DNA of 62,967 nucleotides, the filler included, from Platydemus manokwari (Eukaryota): the NCBI GenBank assembly GCA_037951405.1. It is 5 parts of 5 records of this genome, joined end to end, with 100 filler letters (N's around TTAATTAATTAA, not from the genome) between each part and the next. Parts side by side here need not be neighbours in the genome. Positions count along the whole stretch, not along the records: positions 1 to 13,779 come from JBBMOY011624738.1; 4 more parts are not named here. One strand, 5' to 3'. Within the stretch, counting starts at the first letter, position 1, and every line of letters begins with the position of its first letter. Below, in pieces: positions 11,941-60,230 of this stretch. A program made the translations under genes and the position numbers. The notes under the pieces were generated by a model. That model was not told the DNA's origin. It did no database searches and saw only the letters and a program-made list of their open reading frames with translations.

Positions 11941-12885
11941 TATGTTATTTGGGTCATTTATAATTCTAAGGAAAAAAAATTGACATGTGTTATTATAATA
12001 GAGCAATTATAGTAATTACCATAGCATATTGTCAACAACAATAATTTATCATATATGTTTAATAATAAATATAAAATTTATACTAATAATTATAATAATG
12101 TTATCATTCAATTTCTAATACTAATAACTTTAATAAGTTTAAGTGATTTTGGAATATTAATATTATTAACAAAAAATATTATTAATAATAATTTTCACAT
12201 AAAATCGTAATTTAAAATTATTCTGATAATTTATTTAAGAAAAAGAAAAATTAAAAATTTCAATTTCATTATTTATGGTTTTATTTTAATTTCGTGTATA
12301 ATATACTGTTTTTATTAAGGAAAATTTTCAAGTATTTTTAAATGTATTTTTTGGTAATTTCTAATTTATTATTGTTTTGCAGAAATCTAAAACCCTCGAT
12401 CTACTCGATGCCGTTTTCGGAACCAACTCACTGCCGTCACAATGGTTATCACTTGCGGTGCAGCCTGGAAATTGGTAACCGTGGCTATCCGATATCTGAT
12501 TTTGATGATAAGGGAGGATATTTTATTTATTTTCTATATTTTAATATTTTTTTATTTGTTATTTTATTCTTTTTTATTAGGTTTAATGAATGGTAATAAT
12601 AAACAATGATAATAAATAAACAATAATATCTGGGATGTTTTTAGGAGTGAGTTAGATTTTATTATTATATTGCACGATGGCTAAACGTTAGTAATGCTGA
12701 CTTTATCATTATTACTCTCTCTTTTGCATTTACTTTATTATTTCATCAGGGTCGAGATTTTATGAAAATATTTATTTAAGCATTGGCTTTATCTCCGTCT
12801 TAACGTTGGTTCCATTCCGTTGAACTCTTAGCTTGATTTTGTGTATTTTAATTTATTTGATCAACATGATCTGACTGTTAACACA

Positions 12886-13590
12886 TTACTCTGATATATG
12901 ATCTTGCAGTTGCCTAAAACTCACTTCCTGTTGTGTTCTATCTTGCTGTGGTCCTTCCTTCATGCTTATTTGGAGGTCATCTTCTGGTTGGGGATCTTTT
13001 TCCAATTCTGGCATGAATACTTCTTGTATAGTTTCTTCTGAAACTTTCGTAAGTTTTTGGATTATCGCGTGAATATACTCGGTATTAATTAATTGTAAAT
13101 CTTCATAGATCGATGCTGTGTCACACTTGTAAATACCTTGGCATTTGTTCCAGCTGACGGTGTCTAGGTCAATCTCATAGGGTTGGATCAGTGGATATTT
13201 TAATTCTATTTGGAGATCGTGGCCTATCAAAATTTCACCCTTTACCAATACATGCAATTTTCTTATAACTTCATATTCTTTTTATTGGTTCTTGGATTGT
13301 AGTTCATCTAGGCCATGAAATTTTATAACGCGGTGTCTTGGTGTTACTTTCGTGCTTAGTATCACTTTCCAGGTTTTTCACCGTGAACTCCGCATCAGTA
13401 TATAGCAGTTTTCCTAGGATTTCCTGTTGAAACAACGATTCTATTATAAATGACATTCTGTGTTTCAATTCTGCGGGTCCTGGTGTAAAGTTGATATGAT
13501 TGTTTTGCCATTGTAGGCTTTTTGTGGAATTTCCTGATATTCGATGGTAATCCTTGTTGTTGTGCCATTCTTCATCTAAAATTTTTATTT
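12886..13590 (-). pseudogene. Decayed DEDDh (REX/ISG20/Exonuc_X-T-like) 3'-5' exonuclease domain in TE-like sequence
   Basis: ExoI LLYTDAEF (D at 13394-13396). After a frameshift: KVILSTKVTPRHRVIKFHGLDELQSKNQ*KEYEVIRKLHVLVKGEILIGHDLQIEL (ExoII-like GHxL), then DTA and SIYEDL (possible ExoIII). Intronless. Confidence 0.7.
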
Positions 13591-13779
13591 ATATAACAAC
13601 CATGTTTTGAAGACGAGATTTTATCACATTTTATATGGATGATAATTTGTGGTGTCCTCTTTGTAATTTATCACACCAACTGGTGCAAGATATCAAATAT
13701 TGAAAGATATTATTCTGGCTTCACCATCTCAAAATTATTGTACTTATTCAATAGCGAGAACAATTGAAATCGAGCTTAT

Positions 13780-13879
13780 NNNNNNNNNNNNNNNNNNNNN
13801 NNNNNNNNNNNNNNNNNNNNNNNTTAATTAATTAANNNNNNNNNNNNNNNNNNNNNNNNNNNNNNNNNNNNNNNNNNNN
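13780..13879. other. Artificial contig linker N44-TTAATTAATTAA-N44
   Basis: 100-nt spacer with stops in all six frames, identical to the three others. Confidence 0.97.
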
Positions 13880-14182
13880 CTGGTTCGATATTAAGCTTAT
13901 AAAAATTTATAAATATGAATATCTTCTTATCATCAAAAAAAGACGCCTGTAGGGATCTTTTATTTAAATTAGATTTTTCGGTCAATTTTTCACGTCTTAA
14001 ATGTGATGGATAATTCCAAAACGAAAGATTCCCACTTATACTTAGATAATTATTGGATACTTTTTATTAAAATCGAATGGCATACACAATAAAGACTCCT
14101 ATGTATCCCTAACTTCATGAATAAACTGTCTTCTTGTGTTCTCGAAAGTTAAATGGCTAACGCACTATAGTCTAGTAGTCTC

Positions 14183-14705
14183 TGTTAAATTAAAATTATA
14201 ATTTAAATCAAATTACGGACTCAGCTCGTCACGAACAAGGTTAAAAATTACAAATAACCTACAATAGATAAATAATCAAGACACGATTAGCACAAACTTA
14301 AATATTAAATAGAAGACAATTACAAAGACTGGTTTGAAAAATCACGTAAAAATCACACAGAATAGAAGTTACGACGGAAAAAACTGGTAGTTGCTAATGA
14401 AATCTTACTCCTTTATAGGCGTATCGTGTTTGTTCAATTAATGTCCCAGACCACCAATTTTCATCCGATAGAATGACTCACCCGTTATCTGTTAATACAT
14501 TTCTCTTACATCTCTCATTGGCGACTTCAATATTTATTGCCATTTAGCGCCATCAATTATTTAAATATGTATGTGAATTGATATATGGGAAGAATCTGAT
14601 TAATTATTGGTGAGTGTATTTGTTTCATTTGTGTGTATCAATCCTTTGAGTGTTATTTCCCCGATTTCAGTAAATATTTTGATTGTTTTTGTGACCTACC
14701 CAACA
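14183..14705. mobile_element. Possible solo LTR
   Basis: TGTT...CCCAACA ends (same 3' heptamer as the 2116-3433 LTR) and a minus-strand TATAAA near 14412-14417. No target-site duplication found. Confidence 0.3.
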
Positions 14706-15406
14706 TGTGGTTAAATATTACTTATTTATACTATACTTAAAGTTCTATAATGAGAACCTAAAAAAATTTCGAGTTCAATTATTTTATAATCGATTCTCAT
14801 TACTCTTTTGCTGTGATATTTTTGAAAATATTAACATTGATTCTAGAGTCTTCATTTGATTATTTGAGAATTTTAATGTTGAGTTAACATAGCAGATACT
14901 GATAACTTTTATTAATATTTGAACTCATATATTGGTTCAATTTGCAACTATTACTGTAATTAGAAATCCAACAATAATTATACCATTTATGACTTCAAAT
15001 GTTTATAAAATTGGATTGTGTCCCCAAATAACTAAAATAATATATTATTATGATTATGGCATAATAACAAAATTGTAAATAATGAAATTCACTCGAATAT
15101 GATAATGATAATTAATTTTTTGTTTAATTAAGAGTAGGTGTCACCTTTTCTAATCATTTTTTCAAATAAATGACAAATTAGTTAAGTTATAAAACGTTGT
15201 ATCGCCACTGTAATGTGCTTATTACGATTAATCATCAAAATTCATTATTTAATTTAAATTATTTTAAATTCTCATAGGTAACACTGTAACTTATAAAACC
15301 AAACAATTTAATTTTACTAGAAATAAAATCAAGTGTGTTTTAACCATTCCTTTATTACAAAATTTGTAGTGCTAATTTAATTTTAGCCAATGTTATTTAT
15401 TTGATA

Positions 15407-15846
15407 ATGATAATTAGAAAATTATTACAACAAAGCAGATTACATATGTAAATTACTATTATATTTTATAAAATATAAAAATTCTTTAGAAATTATGCCC
15501 TGAATTCTATGAGAGATAGCTCTAGTAGAACATCCATTACAAGAATGCACCGCTCTACTTACGCTCACATGCCAAAAATCAAACTAGTGATGTCCGATGG
15601 ATCTGTTCAAACAATTAGATTCCCTGAACCTAGATTGTCATTTAGGGTTAGAGGTTAATAATTTAAATTCACTACGAATTATGTATTTAGATGCCTTTGG
15701 ATTTAAATAAATGCTCAGAAGAAGAAAAACGAAAACGACTAATCTTACGAATGCCTGTATCTAAAATTACAATTGAAGAAGAAATTTCAACAACCTTCGA
15801 TGTCAATGAATACAGTTATCTTTGGAAAAAGAAGAAAAAATCGTGA
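15407..15846 (+). CDS. MRPL55: Mitochondrial ribosomal protein L55; exons 15407-15447, 15490-15646, 15691-15846 (117 aa)
   Basis: GT-AG introns of 42 and 44 nt keep the frame. The protein DSSSRTSITRMHRSTYAHMPKIKLVMSDGSVQTIRFPEPR...MPLDLNKCSEEEKRKRL...FDVNEYSYLWKK matches the mL55 pattern (R.SxTR.HR..Y, DGS..IR..EPR, MP.DL..LS.EE, Y..FW). Confidence 0.9.
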
Positions 15847-18527
15847 TAAAATAAAAATGTTTTTTTTTCAATTAAATCTTATCTGTGAAATCATTTAAAT
15901 TAAAAATTGAATCAGTCAATTAAAGATTTCAAAATCTGTTGGAAATAGTAAATATAATTTTCTGGTCTACAAAGGCTAAATAATTGAAAAATTCGTTAAA
16001 TGGTTGTCGGGTGTAAAATTTCTGTTTGATAAAATGTTTATATTAGAAAATTTCAGAATTATCTTTTTACTAAATAATTGATAACGTAATTTAAAATATC
16101 AATTTAGGTCTGGAAGATATGGCGTGAAATAAACAAATTTATTCGAAAAGGTCAAAGGGTTTTCAGTTATGTCGATAGTTGATTCCACATGGGTGAATGC
16201 TCATGAAGTGCAAGTTTCTTTTCTAATGTGGCATGATTCTTATAAGCTGAATTAAAGTGCTTGTAGAATATTATTAGTAAATGACTTGCGAATCTTAATA
16301 TTTGAGAATTTAGTGTTAAGATTAAAACGAATTTATTTTTAATTGAATCATTTTATAATTAAATAGATTTTACAATGATAAATATTTTTGCGTAACGTTT
16401 GGGCCGGTCCATGGAAAACCGGTTAGAACGTCTTTAAATAGAATATTTAAGATTTAGGTTTATTTACCCAACAAAACAATATTCAGAGTACATCATGTCC
16501 AGCAAAAAAATTTGTAATAAAAATATTTTGTATCTTTTTGTTTACTTATTTTTATAAGTAGCAAGTAATTTATCAAAAATCGAATGAGATTGGAAATCAA
16601 TACCTGAAGAGTATTGAAGAATGATATTTTATATATGGGTAATTATTATTTTGGATTTATGTATAAACATGATATTTCAAGTCGTTTGACTCAATTGCTT
16701 CAATGAGGTTAATTTGAATTTACTATTTTTATTAAATCTCAGATTGAGTTAAAACACAATAATTACTATTAAAGTGGAGTAACAATGACTACGAGTCGAC
16801 TAAAAAATAAATATATTTTAGTGTGTATATGTGATGTATTGCGCATTGATTTTGATTTATTATAAATGTTAGAAACTGATTGGTAATTTTTCTTCTTTCT
16901 TGATATCATCCTTTTAAGTGGAAATATCGGTTGGATCCTTTAAACAATTAATTAAACTCTGACTCCAAATTAGAAGGCTGATATCATATTTGCTTGTGTA
17001 CTACATTGTGTACTATCAACCAAAAATTGGCTTCTTATTGATAGATTCTTAATAATTTTATATTTAAATCAATTGATTGACACAAATATGAGCAAAGAAG
17101 TATGTAGATGATCAAAAAATGGTTTGCATTTTGGAATGATAAATAAATATCTGCATCAAATATGATAAAATAGTAATTGATTTAATTTAATCTCATTCAT
17201 CATGTTTCAATATTTTCATCAATCGAATGTCGATGGTAAAACGGATTAAGATTTGATCAAATAAAATATTTATTTTTTCATATTGGGCAAATATCAAACA
17301 TCCGATTAAAGGCAAATGTCAAGGGGAAAATATTTTCTTCCACTACATCAATTAAAATGATAAAAATTCACTTTGAACAATATTTACCACCATTGGGAAT
17401 GATATTAGATTTTCAAAATCACACACCAGATATTTTTATTTGATAAGTCCGAACAACAAAGGAACTGATAGAAGTTGTTATAAGTTTTGTTATTGTCTTT
17501 GAGCTTACTAATTGGAAACACCTTCATTACCAGGTGCTATAACAGATGATGTTTTCAAAATTGTTATACAAGACGGTGATGAATGGAAACTTGGAATTGA
17601 TTTATTATTAAAATATTAACATTTTGAATCGTGTTAATTGTAGAGTGAAATGTAATTCTGCATAAAAAACGAAAGTTACACCTTGGAAGCCTTGTTTTGG
17701 CACTTTAAACATTTTCATGCCTACATAGCCTTACAGGCATAGGAATCAGCCAATCATAGTGAAGTTAGATGGTGAATTACAACTGAAAAAAGAGGCATAG
17801 CTACACAAAACACACATATAGGGATTGACCAATACCAATTATGTAAAAACTTAAAAACTCAATAAGAGCACAGAAAAGCAAATATCAAATCAAAATGTGA
17901 TACAACATGACATAAAAAATACACAAATCGCGAGTATAAAAATCGATGTGAAGATAGCCAACTGCCAGTTGGAAGCCAAGTTTGGGTTTAGACTTTGTCG
18001 TTTGGTTATTGTTTATTTTTAATAAATACACAACATAATGATGAAAATAAAATCGGGATTTCATAAGGAACATGGAAACATGTTGAACCCAAATTTCCTT
18101 TAATATGTAGACAAATTGAAGGGGTGTTGTTGCTATAGGTTGTAAAAGTATTTTTCTTATTCGTCATGTAAGCCGCTACTATTTTATAAAGCCTTCGTTG
18201 AAAACGAATAGAAAAATTAAGACACAAAATAATGTATTTGACTACAGTTATTTAAATGAGTTAATACATAAAATCGGATTATAAAATCTTTTAAATTCGT
18301 TTTCAAAAGTCTTACATGTTAGAAAATTTTCCTTTCAAATATGCAGTCAAGATTTTAATTAAAATTTTTATTAATATTTGTGCTATTATAATAAAACATG
18401 CTTGCGACTACATTTTATAAATCATATATTATCACGCACAATGGAATTTTTGTAAATAAAGCATCCTAATGTTTTTTTAATCTAAAAAATCACTTTGTTT
18501 TCCAGGTATTTTTTGAGTTCTTTTCAC

Positions 18528-19022
18528 CTATTCATAGTACAGTCCATGTACTGTAGCTGTGGCATAAATTGTAGCTCCCTCATACACAGCTTCAGCAACG
18601 TTGTCGCCATTTTCCGGATACCATAGTGATCTACTAGCAAAAATTATGTTGGCAGATGATTTATCTCCAATAGAAACGATGCAGACAAGCTTGTACCGAT
18701 TGGAACAGATGTTACTAACACGCATTTTTATGCCATTAGCGATCAATTTACATAGCATGGAACATTCAATACTATTATAAGCCTTTCCGGATAGTTTTTC
18801 TTTTAGATATTCTTCTATTATTTGCTGAACGTTTTTGAAATTAAATTTCTTTTTCGGGTCTGGTATCATTCGATATGAATTTTCTACCGTTTCTGGAATG
18901 TGAATGGCTCTCACTCGACCAAGACTGGCTCTAGTATTGAAAATCGTTGATCGACGTACTCGATTTAGAGTTTTGGATATCTCCAAACTAATAATACTCG
19001 GACGCTTGATTTGTAGATCCAT
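18528..19022 (-). CDS. Tctex1-domain dynein light chain (TCTEX1D-like), single exon, 164 aa
   Basis: ENSYRMIP..KF....VQQIIEEYL...L....Y, RYKLVCIVSIG, ASRSLW...D..A and ATATVHGLYYE are Tctex-1 family hallmarks. Confidence 0.92.
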   Translation of the reverse strand: MDLQIKRPSIISLEISKTLNRVRRSTIFNTRASLGRVRAIHIPETVENSYRMIPDPKKKFNFKNVQQIIEEYLKEKLSGKAYNSIECSMLCKLIANGIKMRVSNICSNRYKLVCIVSIGDKSSANIIFASRSLWYPENGDNVAEAVYEGATIYATATVHGLYYE

Positions 19023-21699
19023 GTTTCGATTGATAAATAAAATAACTGTTAAAATTCAGAATGTTTGTTACAATTAGATCAACTATACTTTAATGTATGT
19101 TGATTTGACGTACTATGAATAAATGAAGAGTGATATTTTAATTAATCCAAGTGATACTGTATTGTAAATGTGATGTTTACATTGTATTTCAGATTGAATA
19201 AAAATTGTAACAATTGATATATTTAGTGTTGTCAAGGAGTTATCAAACTTCATATTTCATCAGTGATTTTTCTATCCAATATATCACAAATTAAATGACA
19301 GAAAATCTATTAAATTTCAGGACTAATTTTGAAACTAATTTCTCCAACTGAAATCTCAAACAAAATTGAAAATTTGTCTCCGTTTTAAAATCGATTTTAG
19401 GACTGCTAAAATTAGTATTGAGGCGTTAATCAATGTTGTTGGTAAGAATCAATAATAATAATAAAATTTCTAAAATAAAATCGCTAAAAAACTAAAATTT
19501 ATTTGTCATAAAGTCTTTTGAGACGAGGTGGCACTAGTCCTCATTTTAATTAGTATTCGTGATATAATTATTGATAATTGTAATTCCCGATTCGGGTTGC
19601 GTCATTTGAATTCTCCTCCAGATCAACATTGTTATTCACTCGTCGTTTTGACTTACCAGTCTCGGAGATTTAGAACTCAACTCCAAGATATGGTTTTTAG
19701 TTTTCTTTAGACTATTTGAGTATTGAGCAATGCGTTTATTAAGAAGCTATAGATGAACTTGATTTGCTTTTTGTCCAGTACGATATTCGATAATACTTTG
19801 TCGTTGTGAGGATCCAAAGACCCGAGAACATCGATACAGATGACATCAATGTGAGTCTCGAATCTTGTTTTATTGCAGATCTTCATGGCAATGCTTCAGA
19901 TATTTGTACAGGTTAGTTTCATGAACAATCAGTACTGCTTCGTCAAATATTGTCAGGTCAACGCGATTCAGTGCATTTTTAGAGTGTTATCCAAAGTTGG
20001 GCACATTCACTATGTCACCTGGATAGATCCATTCACTTTAATGGAATGTTAATGAAAAAGTCGATTGATTGAGAGAATAGTATTTTGACTTGACACCTCG
20101 ATAAAATCGGAATTAGCTGTGCAAAAATCTTCAACCATATGTATTCCAAACTAGTCACACATGCAAGAACTAAATAAGTCAGGAAAGTACAACTACTCAC
20201 AATGAAACAAAATCAAGCAAACCAATAAAGTATTTGATGTAATCCAAAGAAAAATTTTCTGAAGACGCTACAAGTCAGGATAGCACAACAAGAACGCACA
20301 AAATATACCCGAACTGTAACAACTTACGAACAGTGCTAAAGCGAATAAATGGTATAAAAGAAATGTCTGGGAATCTATGGTAATAAGCGATAGATTTGTC
20401 AAAGCCGGATGAAAGAAATCAGCAGGAACAGATAACACGATAGAAATCGGAGAAAGAATAAAAAGAATGTGGACATAAAAAATAAAATGCCTGAGGAGTG
20501 GGGTATATGAAAACATAAACAATAAAAGTGTGTCAAGACATAAATTGTGTCTCAGTTAATTGGATAACTGACCTGGACACATAAGAGGGATATTCCGAAC
20601 CAAGTACAACGAAATCTATATTTTTTTCTTTATATGTATATATATATATATATATTTGATAGGTAGAATTAAAAAATTAATATAAAAAATCGAACTAAAA
20701 TAACTATTTACAAGACGGTAGAGAATATATTCAATTTCATTGACCATAAATTTAGCCCTATGAGAATCAAGAGGCTAATAAACTGATATTAAAGACTAGC
20801 TGAGAAGGGATCTGAGATTAAATTTAATAATGAATTTAATTTTTTTGATGAATTGAATTTGTTTTGATTTTTATGGTTTAAGCTTTAAGAGGGAAATTAG
20901 TGCTCAGATATTACAATCAATTAAATCATTGTTAAGATAACTCAAGCGACTGATACGAACATTCATTTAGTTCTTTGATTTTATAAACATTAATGATACC
21001 TTTTTACTAATCACATTTGGACAAAGAAGAACCGTCTACAAGCAGTTATTTTTCAATTTATCGGAGCCACACATTACCAACAACCTTATTGGCTCAATTC
21101 TAATAATCAAATCATAATGCAGAAAAATATACACTAGAAATATGGTTTCATTTTTGAATAAAAATTAAAACAACTAATTCATCTCAGTCTCCTGTTCAAA
21201 TAATCATTTGTTACATTTACTGAACGTTAAATTATTATGTCCTGATTTCATTGCCTATGTCCTTATTTAAAATGATCCTTTGATTTTCTGTCTCTACAAA
21301 AATTCAGATGTCCATAGAGAATAATTAATATATTCGATACATGTTTTGTTCTTTTTAAGATTTACTGTTTTCGATATTTACCACGTTTTATAATTTATAT
21401 TAATAATTAATTAATTTATTTTTCAATTCATAATAAAATAATTTTATTCATCAATCAAAGTATTTCAAGTCAAAATCGGTGTAAAAGAATTGCCTATATC
21501 AAATCATAGAAGTAAACCTGTAATAAAAAACCCTTTTGATGATGACTAAGAGAATTATCAAATTATTATAGATAATTTTAAAATTTAAAAGATAAATTTA
21601 TTTTCAAGAACTATTAATATAATCGATCAAAACCAACTTTAATAAAAATCATTATTCAAGAGATTTACTGTAAAATGTTGTAGTAAAATATGTTATGGG

Positions 21700-25532: not shown

Positions 25533-25632
25533 NNNNNNNNNNNNNNNNNNNNNNNNNNNNNNNNNNNNNNNNNNNNTTAATTAATTAANNNNNNNNNNNN
25601 NNNNNNNNNNNNNNNNNNNNNNNNNNNNNNNN
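25533..25632. other. Artificial contig linker
   Basis: N44-TTAATTAATTAA-N44. Confidence 0.97.
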
Positions 25633-38607: not shown

Positions 38608-39822
38608 TTAATGTGTCGTTCGTTTGAAATCAGAAGTTTCCATTAATTTATAAAACATTGAACAGAATTTCCCCATAATACTAGTTTCATCTATACCAGT
38701 TAAGTGGGAATCTACCATTTCTTGTTCTTTATTGAATTCCTGACGAATTATTAAAGGTGTCAATCTGGCACAAATATTTCGACGTATTTTTTCAGTTTCA
38801 CTCGTATTGGCATTTAATTGATCTGCATAATAATTAGTAAGATTCTCCAAATGTTCTATTAGCATTTGAAGCATCTTATGACTATCTATGGGTAAACGCT
38901 TCAAGATTCTCGTATAATCTCTTTGCAAAGTTTTTGATGTAGATCTTTCTAATATTTCCTGCAATTGATACGGTATCAAAGGTTGGGGAGTTTCATTCAA
39001 TAACACTTGGATTAACTTTTCTATTCGGCTAACATTCCATCGTTTATCGTTTGATAATTTTATTTTATGTCCAGCTTGACCTTCCAAAGCTCGCAAAAGA
39101 GTTCCAATGTCAACATCTTTCAGTTCTTTAATTTCATTGCGTTTCTTTTGGCCTTTACGAAACCGCCTATTTTCCACTTCATCAATACATGTTTTTAGAA
39201 GATCACAAGTTAAATTCATTTTGATGCCAAATTCTTCTAGCCAAAAGAACTTTTCATTATCAGATCTAGCTTTCAAAACCAAATCACTGACCATATCTTT
39301 ATCGACCTTTTTCACTTTCAATTGAAATGCTTCGCGTTCTTTAATTTGAATGTAACATATTTCTTTAGAGCTTAAAATAAAATACGATCTCTTGGTAGCG
39401 GGTTTTTTAGGATCAAACAGTGTCAACAAGCTTTCTTTTAAATCCAAAGAATAATTTAGCAATTTCAATGCAACACTGTCATCATTATGAAAAATGTATT
39501 TATGAATTTTTCCTTGTTCTTTAATTGTCTTAGTATCACCATAATCCACTTGCACAAGTTGCTTATTTGTTTCAGCACTTACCTTATCCTTTGAACGTGA
39601 TTTCTTGGGATGGTCATCCATTTTTTTGTTACTTTTTTGTTTGCCATGGTGCAAATCATCTTCATTTCTATAAAGAGTTTTAGAATTAGAATTTTTCAAT
39701 AGTTCATTGGAATAAGTAGGTTTGAGAATTTTTTTTTCGTGTGTTTTTGATTTGATGGGGTTTGTTACATTTAATTGTTTTTCGTCACCTCTGTTAATTC
39801 TCTTTTGATAGAGTTTATTCAT
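38608..39822 (-). CDS. Intronless 404-aa PH-domain + divergent RhoGAP-domain protein
   Basis: PH-like segment: KRSYFILSSKEICY...LVLKARSDNEKFFWLEEF. RhoGAP-like segment: LLKTCIDEVENR...LLNETPQPLIP...LKRLP..SHKMLQMLIEHL...NICARLTPLIIR. This is the longest ORF in the window. Confidence 0.75.
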   Translation of the reverse strand: MNKLYQKRINRGDEKQLNVTNPIKSKTHEKKILKPTYSNELLKNSNSKTLYRNEDDLHHGKQKSNKKMDDHPKKSRSKDKVSAETNKQLVQVDYGDTKTIKEQGKIHKYIFHNDDSVALKLLNYSLDLKESLLTLFDPKKPATKRSYFILSSKEICYIQIKEREAFQLKVKKVDKDMVSDLVLKARSDNEKFFWLEEFGIKMNLTCDLLKTCIDEVENRRFRKGQKKRNEIKELKDVDIGTLLRALEGQAGHKIKLSNDKRWNVSRIEKLIQVLLNETPQPLIPYQLQEILERSTSKTLQRDYTRILKRLPIDSHKMLQMLIEHLENLTNYYADQLNANTSETEKIRRNICARLTPLIIRQEFNKEQEMVDSHLTGIDETSIMGKFCSMFYKLMETSDFKRTTH

Positions 39823-39995
39823 AACAATAGATTTATAAAACTTCTCCGTAAATTCAAAATATAATAATAAGCAAAACTAATTTCTTTAAAGATATTAAAA
39901 ATATATATATATATTTATTTATATACAAAATAAATATTATAAAATCATTTATTTAATATTTAAAATAGCATGATAAAAGAATAGGGTTTATTCAC

Positions 39996-40095
39996 NNNNN
40001 NNNNNNNNNNNNNNNNNNNNNNNNNNNNNNNNNNNNNNNTTAATTAATTAANNNNNNNNNNNNNNNNNNNNNNNNNNNNNNNNNNNNNNNNNNNN
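39996..40095. other. Artificial contig linker
   Basis: N44-TTAATTAATTAA-N44. Confidence 0.97.
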
Positions 40096-51457: not shown

Positions 51458-51557
51458 NNNNNNNNNNNNNNNNNNNNNNNNNNNNNNNNNNNNNNNNNNN
51501 NTTAATTAATTAANNNNNNNNNNNNNNNNNNNNNNNNNNNNNNNNNNNNNNNNNNNN
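51458..51557. other. Artificial contig linker
   Basis: N44-TTAATTAATTAA-N44. Confidence 0.97.
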
Positions 51558-51896: not shown

Positions 51897-53078
51897 TACA
51901 TTTATTTCACACTTTTACTATTATTTTATTCATTTTTCTAACATAATTATATAAATAATATAATTTTTACGAATTTTTAATTTTATTTTTTTTCTAACTA
52001 TAAACATTTTTTTATATTACTTTTCATATAAATCATAAAAAAAATCAAAAAACATACAAATGAATTACTAAACAGTTAATAATCACTAATAAATCAAAAG
52101 TAAAATTAAAGGAGTTAAATGACAATAAATTGTCTTTAAATCCATTGTCTTCGTCAATGTCAACTTTTCATTTCGGCAGGCTTTGATACGGGGATTGGGA
52201 TTGTTTGGAATTGTCTCCTATTTTCATGTAGACTGAAGGAAAAGATTTAGATTATCCTGGAAGCTGAGAACTAGATGATTGAGAATACGAGAATTGAGAT
52301 GTTGATCAAAGTCTTTGAACTATAAATAATGGCAAACATAGCCCAACATAATGTTTCATGAAGTCAGACATAAACTTGTTTAAATTTTTAATTAAACGTG
52401 GTTATCATTGGCCAGAAATTTAAGAACATTGACCCTCATAACAATAAGATCTTACTTATCTCAATACACTTTTGGAGAAGATTTCAGTTTAAAGTTGAAA
52501 CATTTATATTTTCCAGTTAACTCGTCATCGATTCATATTTTACCAATTGATAATTCATGTCCCACCTATTTCGAAGTATTTACATTAATTGAGAACTTCT
52601 TTGTGTCTTTTCACGCTACTAGGACGAAATCGCAATATTTAATCATATAGTGGAGATTAAATTATTGATTGGTGGTTTAGTATTTGTGGATTGTATGATC
52701 AATTTCATTAATTTGTCGCGAGTTTGTATATTATCTTTAGTATGAACATATATAAAGTGTAGACTTTTGATGGCTTCCGATACGCTTTACATAATTTTTT
52801 CCAATTTAACAATTTAAAAACTTAACTGTAATATTAATTTACAATTTATAATTTTTTCTTTCTTGTTGAGGTCTATAAATTAGTATTCAACTTACAGATC
52901 TATAAATTTATGAAATAACTATTCACAAATCAATAATTAATTTGAACTTAAACGCTTTTCTGAAATAAAATTGTTATGAAATCAAACATTTATGATAATG
53001 ATTTGATACAGAACTATTTGCGATTAATTAATTTTGTTTAAATTTATTACTTTATTAATACATTTTAAACAATTCAAA

Positions 53079-54470
53079 ATGGGTTCACCTATGTATGATC
53101 CATTTCATAAAGGTTATCGCATTTTTATCGGTGGTTTGAATCCAAAAGTCACAAAATATGACATAGAAAGGGAATTCGAACGTTTTGGTAAGGTTACCGA
53201 TGTTTGGGTAGCCAGAAGTCCACCAGGTTTTTCATTTTTAATTTACAAGCATGCTGGTGATGCTGAATATGCAGTGGCAAAGATGAATGACAGGTCTTAT
53301 ATTTTTAACTGCAATAATATTAATTAAAATATAGAAAGTTTATGGGTGAACGAATAAAGGTTGAGCATGCTAGAAATCCATCTAACCCAAAATCTCAAAG
53401 GTATGCTATATATAATTATAATTAAAAATAATGTAGCGGACCTAAATCATAATTTACATTTATAAAATCAGCCTCTACGGTTATTCAATGATTCATTATA
53501 TTCTCTACTTCAATAACGACACCATTACTACTTATATTAATCGAATTCAACATAAAATCAGTTCTTCGATATTCGAAACTTCTCACTTATTCATTCCTTT
53601 TTGTGTTTCAGCATGTTTTTGATCAATATTTTAGCAGGTAAGATAAGCCCAAGAAGGACTAATTAATATTTCCTAGGACTAAGGATTTATAAAATTTTCA
53701 AATGTTTATATTAAATTAATCTAAATTTAGAGGGGGTCGGAGCAGGTCACGAGATTATAGAAGAAGTAGATCTCGCGAAAAATATAGAAGTAGATCTCGA
53801 GGTAAATATCGAAGCAGAAGCAGGGATAGGCGAAAGAGATCTAGATCACGCCATCGGGATAGGTATGTTTTAACCTATTTTTATTAATAATATTTTTGAT
53901 AGATCATCCGATGACCGAAAATCAAAAAGAAGGAGGTCTAGGTCAAATCGCAGAAATAAAAGCCGATCACTTTCTTTCAGAAAGAATCGCAGTCGTTCAA
54001 CCTCTGCTAAAAAAGGGCGTAGTAAATCTTTATCAGTGAAAAGAGAGCGTAGTAGGTCAATATCAGGTAAGCCTGATGGTGGTAGATCTACTTTTAATAA
54101 AAGAGATAGAAGTAGTTCTACACCTATAAAAAAAGAAAAAGAATTTAGTAGATCACCATCGATTAGAAAAGATAGAAGTGAAACTGTGTCCGAAAAAGGG
54201 CATAGACGTAAAAGTCATTCATCAAGGCGCCAAACATCGAAATCGAGTTCTAGGTCGTCAGGTGGTAAAAAGAGGACCCCTCCATCACGAGATGCTTCTG
54301 TTGAGAAGATAAATTCTAAACACTCTAGTAAGAAAAGCTCGTCAAATTCCTCTAGAGGTAGGGAAAATTCGAAATCATATTCTCCTGACAAAGATGGTAA
54401 TGACAGTCCGAACAGTATGGTGAATGGAAATCGGTGTAGATCTAGTAGTGCTTGTGGTGAAGAAATATGA
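53079..54470 (+). CDS. SRSF3/SRSF7(RBP1)-like SR splicing factor; exons 53079-53293, 53335-53400, 53731-53862, 53903-54470 (326 aa)
   Basis: RRM RIFIGGL...DVWVARSPPGFSF...GERIKVEHAR followed by a long RS domain. GT-AG introns of 41, 330 and 40 nt are all phase 2. No zinc knuckle. Confidence 0.9.
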
Positions 54471-59849: not shown

Positions 59850-60230
59850 TTATTAAAAGGATTACCAAAACTATTTAGGCTGCTAAAAATTTCGTCGATT
59901 GTTTTATTGTAGCGTTTATCATAAATTCGATATCAGGCAATAAGTCAATCCAATCTATGTATTTCTTGTTTTGAATACTTGTCATTATTGGATCACGTAT
60001 TGTTCGAAATTGTAACTCGATCAGACCATTGGCACTGTGACGATAAGGACTTGATTGTTTCAATACAATGTGATGCTTTGTCTAGAGTTCTGAAATAACT
60101 TTGGATTCGAAGACTCTTCCTCTATCTGTATATAGCGTTTTAGGGGAGCCAAATTTTAGGATCCATTTATTGGTTAAATAATGGTATGCGTTTGTATTTT
60201 GACTGGTTCTTAAGGGGCTTCAATATCGGG
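59850..60230 (-). mobile_element. Gypsy integrase core remnant
   Basis: KWILKFGSPKTLYTDRGRVFES...SSPYRHSANGLIE.QFRTI...WIDLLPDIEFMINAT, with internal stops. Confidence 0.9.

Follow-up and report, generated by a model that had tools for sequence, protein, structure and literature searches.

A dead exonuclease gene in Platydemus manokwari, probably cargo of a giant gypsy-like retrotransposon, and the cupin-DEDDh family to which it belongs

A short stretch of the Platydemus manokwari genome recalls a DEDDh exonuclease, and the question that it raises is from which gene it descends and whether that gene belonged to the host or to a mobile element. The window, that is, the whole stretch of DNA that was analysed (62,967 nucleotides, five joined parts of assembly GCA_037951405.1 with filler between them), is AT-rich eukaryotic DNA. 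The remnant on its minus strand, at 12889-13588, is an intronless exonuclease gene, broken by one stop codon and two frameshifts and further shortened by small in-frame deletions. Its parts, in the direction of reading, are the following:

13510-13569, minus strand: final strand region of the cupin-like N-terminal domain, read in a frame of its own ahead of the first frameshift
about 13510 to 13490, minus strand: first frameshift; the family motif stands in a second frame
13385-13489, minus strand: linker (TP...KHR.SFI) and ExoI (D-A-E); family profile 23.9 bits, E 1e-9
13402-13385, minus strand: ExoI, YTDAEF, its D-x-E aligned with the ExoI of the family
13366-13384, minus strand: second break, a frameshift plus a deleted beta strand after ExoI, leaving about 16 columns blank in the alignment with every relative
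13171-13368, minus strand: exonuclease core with P-R...HG, stop and ExoII GHDL; phmmer E 2.7e-10 to 5e-4
13347-13312, minus strand: VTP...HG, in the frame next to that of ExoI
13284-13282, minus strand: in-frame stop
13242-13213, minus strand: KGEILIGHDL (ExoII, with the Asp of GHD present), the frame then being open down to 12889
12889-13170, minus strand: open Q/E-rich remainder, without ExoIII

When the downstream frame alone was compared by phmmer with 1.84 billion representative proteins, 11 matches were obtained at E <= 0.001; the upstream frame, which had no part in that query, independently matches the profile of the relatives (E 1.2e-7), and a control search with the reversed window returned no match, so that the gene can be regarded as real. 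The core at 13171-13368 is 33-47% identical to 12 relatives, the region 13385-13489 is also matched in tblastn with P0002, P0003, P0006, P0009 and P0011, and the family motif at 13569-13510 scores 8.9 bits, against a maximum of 2.3 in 200 shuffles, with an N-domain profile from which the window copy was left out when it was built. Read through with X at the breaks, the window copy gives a sub-threshold match to Pfam RNase_T (E 0.06-0.08), no match in a PDB sequence search, and none among the 657 and 175 candidates of word-seeded protein searches. A weak Pfam match of the upstream frame to CwfJ_C_2 (E 0.015) was rejected as chance. One contig of run X1 (1883 bases) covers 11843-13725 with no difference and, since X1 may be the assembly's own source, this argues only against a scaffolding error.

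The preliminary description of this locus had listed the ExoI motif, a V.P......HG segment and KGEILIGHDL, all of which are present, with frameshifts and deletions and with no introns needed to join them. It had also assigned a DEDDh domain, which is borne out for ExoI and ExoII but not for ExoIII, whose H-x4-D gave no profile match in any of the three frames (best -0.5 bits, with shuffles up to 4.0); and the "DTA" which it picked out, at about 13122, is not the post-ExoII motif of the family, this being IRD(L/M/T) about 15 residues earlier. ExoIII was lost either by a further deletion near 13181 or by decay in place of a colinear motif. In run X1, a sister contig has extra letters at the second break (near 13370), and 12999-13181 is fitted by a sister contig (30 differences, 2 gaps) whose fit ends there; the full family profile, for its part, runs colinearly through 12889-13170, but without the H or the D. 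Whichever way it was lost, the window copy has no detectable ExoIII and is therefore dead, does nothing itself, and can be called DEDDh only by family membership. It is a fossil, and its worth is that of a pointer to the family.

The relatives collected number 18, none of them with an informative name. The PF00929 cut-off is passed by 9 of the 11 first phmmer matches, H-x4-D is found in 14 of the 18 relatives (the region is missing from the other four), and an intact DEDDh set (ExoI, ExoII, and ExoIII with its His) is present in relatives as well as in the active open reading frames (ORFs) of two metagenomic elements, L001 and L003 (see below). Against PDB, the best matches of the relatives' profile are ISG20L2 (E 6.7e-21), ISG20 (3.9e-15), SDN1 (1.4e-13) and PAN2 (1e-7), in agreement with the REX/ISG20-like assignment made previously. 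These four are the best matches of the family nuclease domain both in sequence and in structure; they are host enzymes, 17-24% identical in structure alignments, and the PDB matches cover the nuclease part only. AlphaFold models of P0002 (mean pLDDT 72) and P0006 (mean pLDDT 90, pTM 0.88) align with ISG20 at Z 18.2 (rmsd 2.7, 163 aligned) and Z 18.5 (2.2, 161), respectively, and at Z of about 18 they show a predicted ISG20-like DEDDh domain with an RNase T-like fold.

About 170 residues before ExoI are common to all full-length members. The N-terminal extension remarked upon in the preliminary description is indeed a conserved folded domain, not noise, but the part quoted there is off-frame, the motif frame being that at 13569-13510. 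In the two models this domain aligns with ALKBH6 at Z 9.6 (3.6, 136) and Z 9.3 (3.5, 127) and, tied with AlkB, with small cupins at Z 9.1-9.8, moderate values which come from whole-protein models; cupins and the N-terminal domain of vaccinia C16 are also among its Foldseek matches. As modelled, the domain has a double-stranded beta-helix fold, cupin/AlkB-like. AlkB-type 2OG-Fe(II) dioxygenases have a conserved HxD/E...H iron triad. The 16-row alignment of the N-domain, judged on columns and not by superposition, contains no conserved H-x-D/E, and has one conserved His (14 of 14 rows) and one invariant Glu; because the alignment lacks an HxD...H triad, we read the domain as a probably non-catalytic beta-helix domain. 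The intact family protein has three parts: the beta-helix domain, cupin/AlkB-like but lacking the iron triad; a DEDDh exonuclease, apparently of the ISG20/REX clade; and an acidic tail, which is variable. In the ESM Atlas the only matches were under 0.8 by features (P0002 residues 1-180; P0006), and the structure rows concern the nuclease part. The BFVD gave giant-virus DEDDh proteins and cupins and no single match spanning both domains, a result which excludes none. The family was found in none of 370, 1 and 41 candidates from viral contigs and in none of 21 from prokaryote genomes.

The element context of the family comes from a scan of metagenome contigs, in which 4 of 426 pattern candidates were confirmed (L001-L004). 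L001 and L002 are one element, with 9 differences in 6568 bases. The polyprotein frame of L001 is at least 2368 aa long (3-7106; the contig begins inside it) and is ordered as PR-RT-RH-IN, a second PR, ankyrin repeats and two hydrophobic segments. Behind it, on the same strand, stand separate ORFs of 491, 443 and 204 aa. The 443-aa ORF is a DEDDh protein with D-E-D-H-D intact (PF00929, 45.6 bits), and the 491-aa ORF is a paralogue that has kept the N-domain and has no catalytic motifs; they score 7.8 and 26.9 bits, respectively, with the N-domain profile (shuffle maxima 6.0 and 7.8), and have invariant P, H, S/T, E and S columns in common. The same dead and active pair occurs in L003, a diverged element on a contig of 2.7 kb (N-domain 18.9 bits; E 1e-10 to the tail of the dead ORF), on which no pol was found. 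A comparison of the two active ORFs, that of L001 with that of L003, gives a pN/pS of 0.27 for the nuclease domain and of 0.50 for the N-domain, pS being close to saturation; the dead and active pair is apparently under purifying selection. L004 is an ordinary host-like REX, without a match to the N-domain profile. L001/L002 supports a gypsy retroelement as the carrier of family members, and the earlier idea of a retroelement with a REX/ISG20-like nuclease holds to this extent, but the nuclease is a separate downstream ORF and not an in-frame domain.

Other features of L001 may be recorded here. The polyprotein runs on for about 1,150 aa beyond the integrase, including the second aspartyl protease, the ankyrins and a hydrophobic segment, then a region of about 400 aa without an assigned domain and a C-terminal hydrophobic segment; a membrane protein in frame with pol is possible. 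The spacers that precede accessory ORFs two and three each hold a two-copy tandem repeat, at 8767-8944 (89 bases) and 10577-10700 (62 bases), and these are possible promoters for subgenomic transcripts. No long direct repeat (LTR) lies within the contig. The third accessory ORF is as follows:

10906-11517 of L001: 204-aa frame whose C-terminal part has a weak ubiquitin/SUMO-like match (E 0.04-0.1)

By eye, its helical N-terminal half seems TFIIS/Med26-like.

Several known systems resemble this arrangement in part. L001 shares with Burro/GYPSM1, the planarian giant gypsy described in PMC6431247, a PR-RT-RH-IN polyprotein of great length that has ankyrin repeats, accessory ORFs that stand apart from it, and an ORF with ubiquitin/SUMO likeness (a weak match in L001), whereas an exonuclease or cupin ORF, which L001 does have, is not listed there. 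The likeness is one by description, and gag, MATH, BIR, BCL2, env and the LTRs lie off the L001 contig. In bdelloid rotifers, according to PMC5408684, the Juno/Vesta LTR elements and Terminons carry a separate DEDD 3'-5' exonuclease ORF3 which, as in L001, stands downstream of gypsy pol; that enzyme is RNase D-like DEDDy, while the present one is REX/ISG20-like DEDDh, with a cupin-like domain and in a dead and active pair. Giant orchid gypsy elements (PMC9289625) have an extra AlkB (2-ODD) ORF with the double-stranded beta-helix fold also seen in our N-domain, but the orchid AlkB is an active m6A demethylase; in the present family HxD...H is not conserved, and an exonuclease is joined to the domain. 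DEDDy ORFs behind rotifer gypsy pol and an AlkB ORF in orchid gypsy elements are therefore already known. In a literature search, no description of Burro-like elements with a DEDDh or cupin-DEDDh ORF was found; the original Burro and Repbase GYPSM1 annotations, which may label these ORFs, stand outside that search. By term search, "exonuclease" is absent from PMC11410931, PMC13524379, PMC13238120 and PMC8532177, and in PMC6338049 it occurs once, citing rotifer work among others; the passages found on planarian LTR retrotransposons and DEDD concern rotifers. A cupin-DEDDh cargo of retroelements is apparently undescribed.

To what, then, did the window copy belong? It is a family member by both domains, 36-39% identical to P0002 and P0006 and 32% identical over 101 aa to the active ORF of L001. 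Its status as cargo is inferred from family membership, the absence of introns, the diverged sister copies of the gene within run X1 and a decay of the dead-element type, and on these grounds it is probably the dead accessory-gene fragment of a giant gypsy-like (Burro-like) LTR retrotransposon. The intronless structure and the REX-clade exonuclease domain would also suit a processed pseudogene of an ordinary host REXO4, REXO1 or ISG20L2 gene; this origin is largely excluded, as the family N-domain motifs are present here and missing from the host-like L004, to which the window copy scores 27.7 bits against 43-85 for catalytically intact family members.

The surroundings of the window copy bear on the other possible origins, and comprise these features:

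3851-4000, minus strand: decayed gypsy RT fragment (tblastn, E about 5e-5 to 1e-3), 9 kb from the window copy
8096-8785, plus strand: C2H2-like zinc finger and phospholipase A2 (PLA2)-like domain, in two in-frame stretches with one stop between them
11196-11739, unstranded: high-copy non-coding repeat downstream of the gene, an unrelated insertion or neighbour
13780-13879, unstranded: scaffold gap, lying some 190 bases upstream of the first codon with a match
59890-60162, minus strand: integrase fragment (tblastn E 4e-10), 46 kb from the window copy

The gap stands where pol would lie by the layout of L001, and the 5' context of the window copy is unassembled. The setting "among retroelement debris" given in the preliminary description is weak, the nearest remnant being the gypsy RT fragment, 9 kb off and across a gap; and of the adjacency to gag/RT/IN that it brought up, L001 shows the pol part, its nuclease ORFs lying behind pol, whereas around the window copy, up to the 13780 gap on the upstream side, neither pol nor an LTR nor any DNA similarity to L001-L003 was found. 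Nine frames read through stops at 3300-5702, 10300-11702 and 13880-14802 gave no Pfam match.

The lack of a neighbouring pol or LTR would be in keeping with the window copy being a pseudogene of a host-domesticated or expanded intronless nuclease family, related to the retroelement but off it. Read depth over the gene, only about 1.5-2 times that of the flanks in run X1, means that close copies are few, which also fits such a family, as do its closest relatives, several of which are long intact ORFs without readable context (17 of the 18 relatives have a contig on record, of 0.9-3.8 kb or of a size not shown, and gene context can be read for none of the 18). However, the relatives are scattered over many clades at 27-64% identity and are mostly singletons, as in transposon families and not as in one conserved gene, and all three confirmed loci with the N-domain (L001-L003) show the element layout, so that we consider a domesticated origin improbable. 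A tree of 19 rows, which omits P0010, P0012, P0013 and P0019 because they are partial or redundant, contains three long branches, resolves neither its backbone nor the position of the window copy (80/33 support with P0006), and its host side is one unnamed host-like row, with no named REXO1, REXO4, ISG20 or PAN2.

Had the gene instead been carried by a different mobile element (a Polinton/Maverick, for example, or a DNA virus), with a family common to several element classes, a counterpart would be the rotifer DEDDy ORFs, which are reported to be common to LTR elements and Terminons (PMC5408684), and a local hint would be the Polinton-type PLA2-like remnant at 8096-8785, whose Pfam E of 0.0035 is below the cut-off. 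That remnant lies on the opposite strand, 4 kb off and beyond a gap, and gypsy is the only element context seen for the family; such an origin is accordingly very improbable. The zinc finger and PLA2-like stretch resembles PLA2X remnants of Polintons/adintoviruses. The gypsy-like retrotransposon thus remains the preferred source of the window copy, with the link of the family to pol provided by one element, L001/L002.

As to what the intact proteins do, the active enzyme would trim 3' ends of single-stranded RNA, the cupin/beta-helix domain would be a binding module for RNA or a partner, and the dead paralogue would serve as a scaffold or decoy. Some viruses use DEDDh nucleases against RNA-based immunity. 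If the gene is indeed cargo, counter-silencing, by degrading small RNAs or immunogenic element RNA, may be the most likely job, though we place it just short of even confidence; we prefer it because SDN1, a small-RNA nuclease, and the antiviral ISG20 are among the nearest relatives of solved structure, and because BURRO1, a piRNA/SMEDWI-2 target, is kept down by SMEDWI-2 (PMC8532177). Maturation of RNA, primer or cDNA ends that belong to the element itself is nearly as probable, and the processing of such ends is the role suggested for the rotifer DEDDy ORFs (PMC5408684). Some other manipulation of the host is unlikely. A more specific proposal, rather doubtful as it stands, is that of a giant gypsy lineage with a dedicated counter-silencing module, in which a pseudo-AlkB/cupin reader and an ISG20/SDN1-like DEDDh nuclease, in an active and dead pair, would degrade PIWI- or Argonaute-associated small RNAs. 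If true, this would be a transposon-encoded small-RNA nuclease acting against the host piRNA pathway, and it bears on how very large retrotransposons persist despite a strong piRNA system. As a candidate for such a role the family enzyme is concrete, compact (about 350 aa) and well modelled, and it comes with a partner domain that is conserved and with a dead paralogue.

The rest of the window offers some minor observations. Over the repeats at 10516-10651 and 11196-11739, summed contig depth is 3,000-18,500, against about 40 in the neighbouring bins; they occur in many internally deleted variants, give no Pfam match in the three plus frames, and are candidate MITE-like elements. Four identical spacers (44 N, a 12-base TTAA repeat, 44 N) are artefacts of scaffolding and not sequence:

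13780-13879, 25533-25632, 39996-40095 and 51458-51557: spacers

An uninterrupted frame of 175 aa at 18531-19055 (minus strand) encodes a Tctex-1 dynein light chain domain (E 4e-21), and host genes are found at 38611-39876 (minus strand; RhoGAP, E 3e-6) and at 53028-54467 (plus strand), the latter for an SR-like protein with an RRM (E 2e-11) and an RS-rich part.
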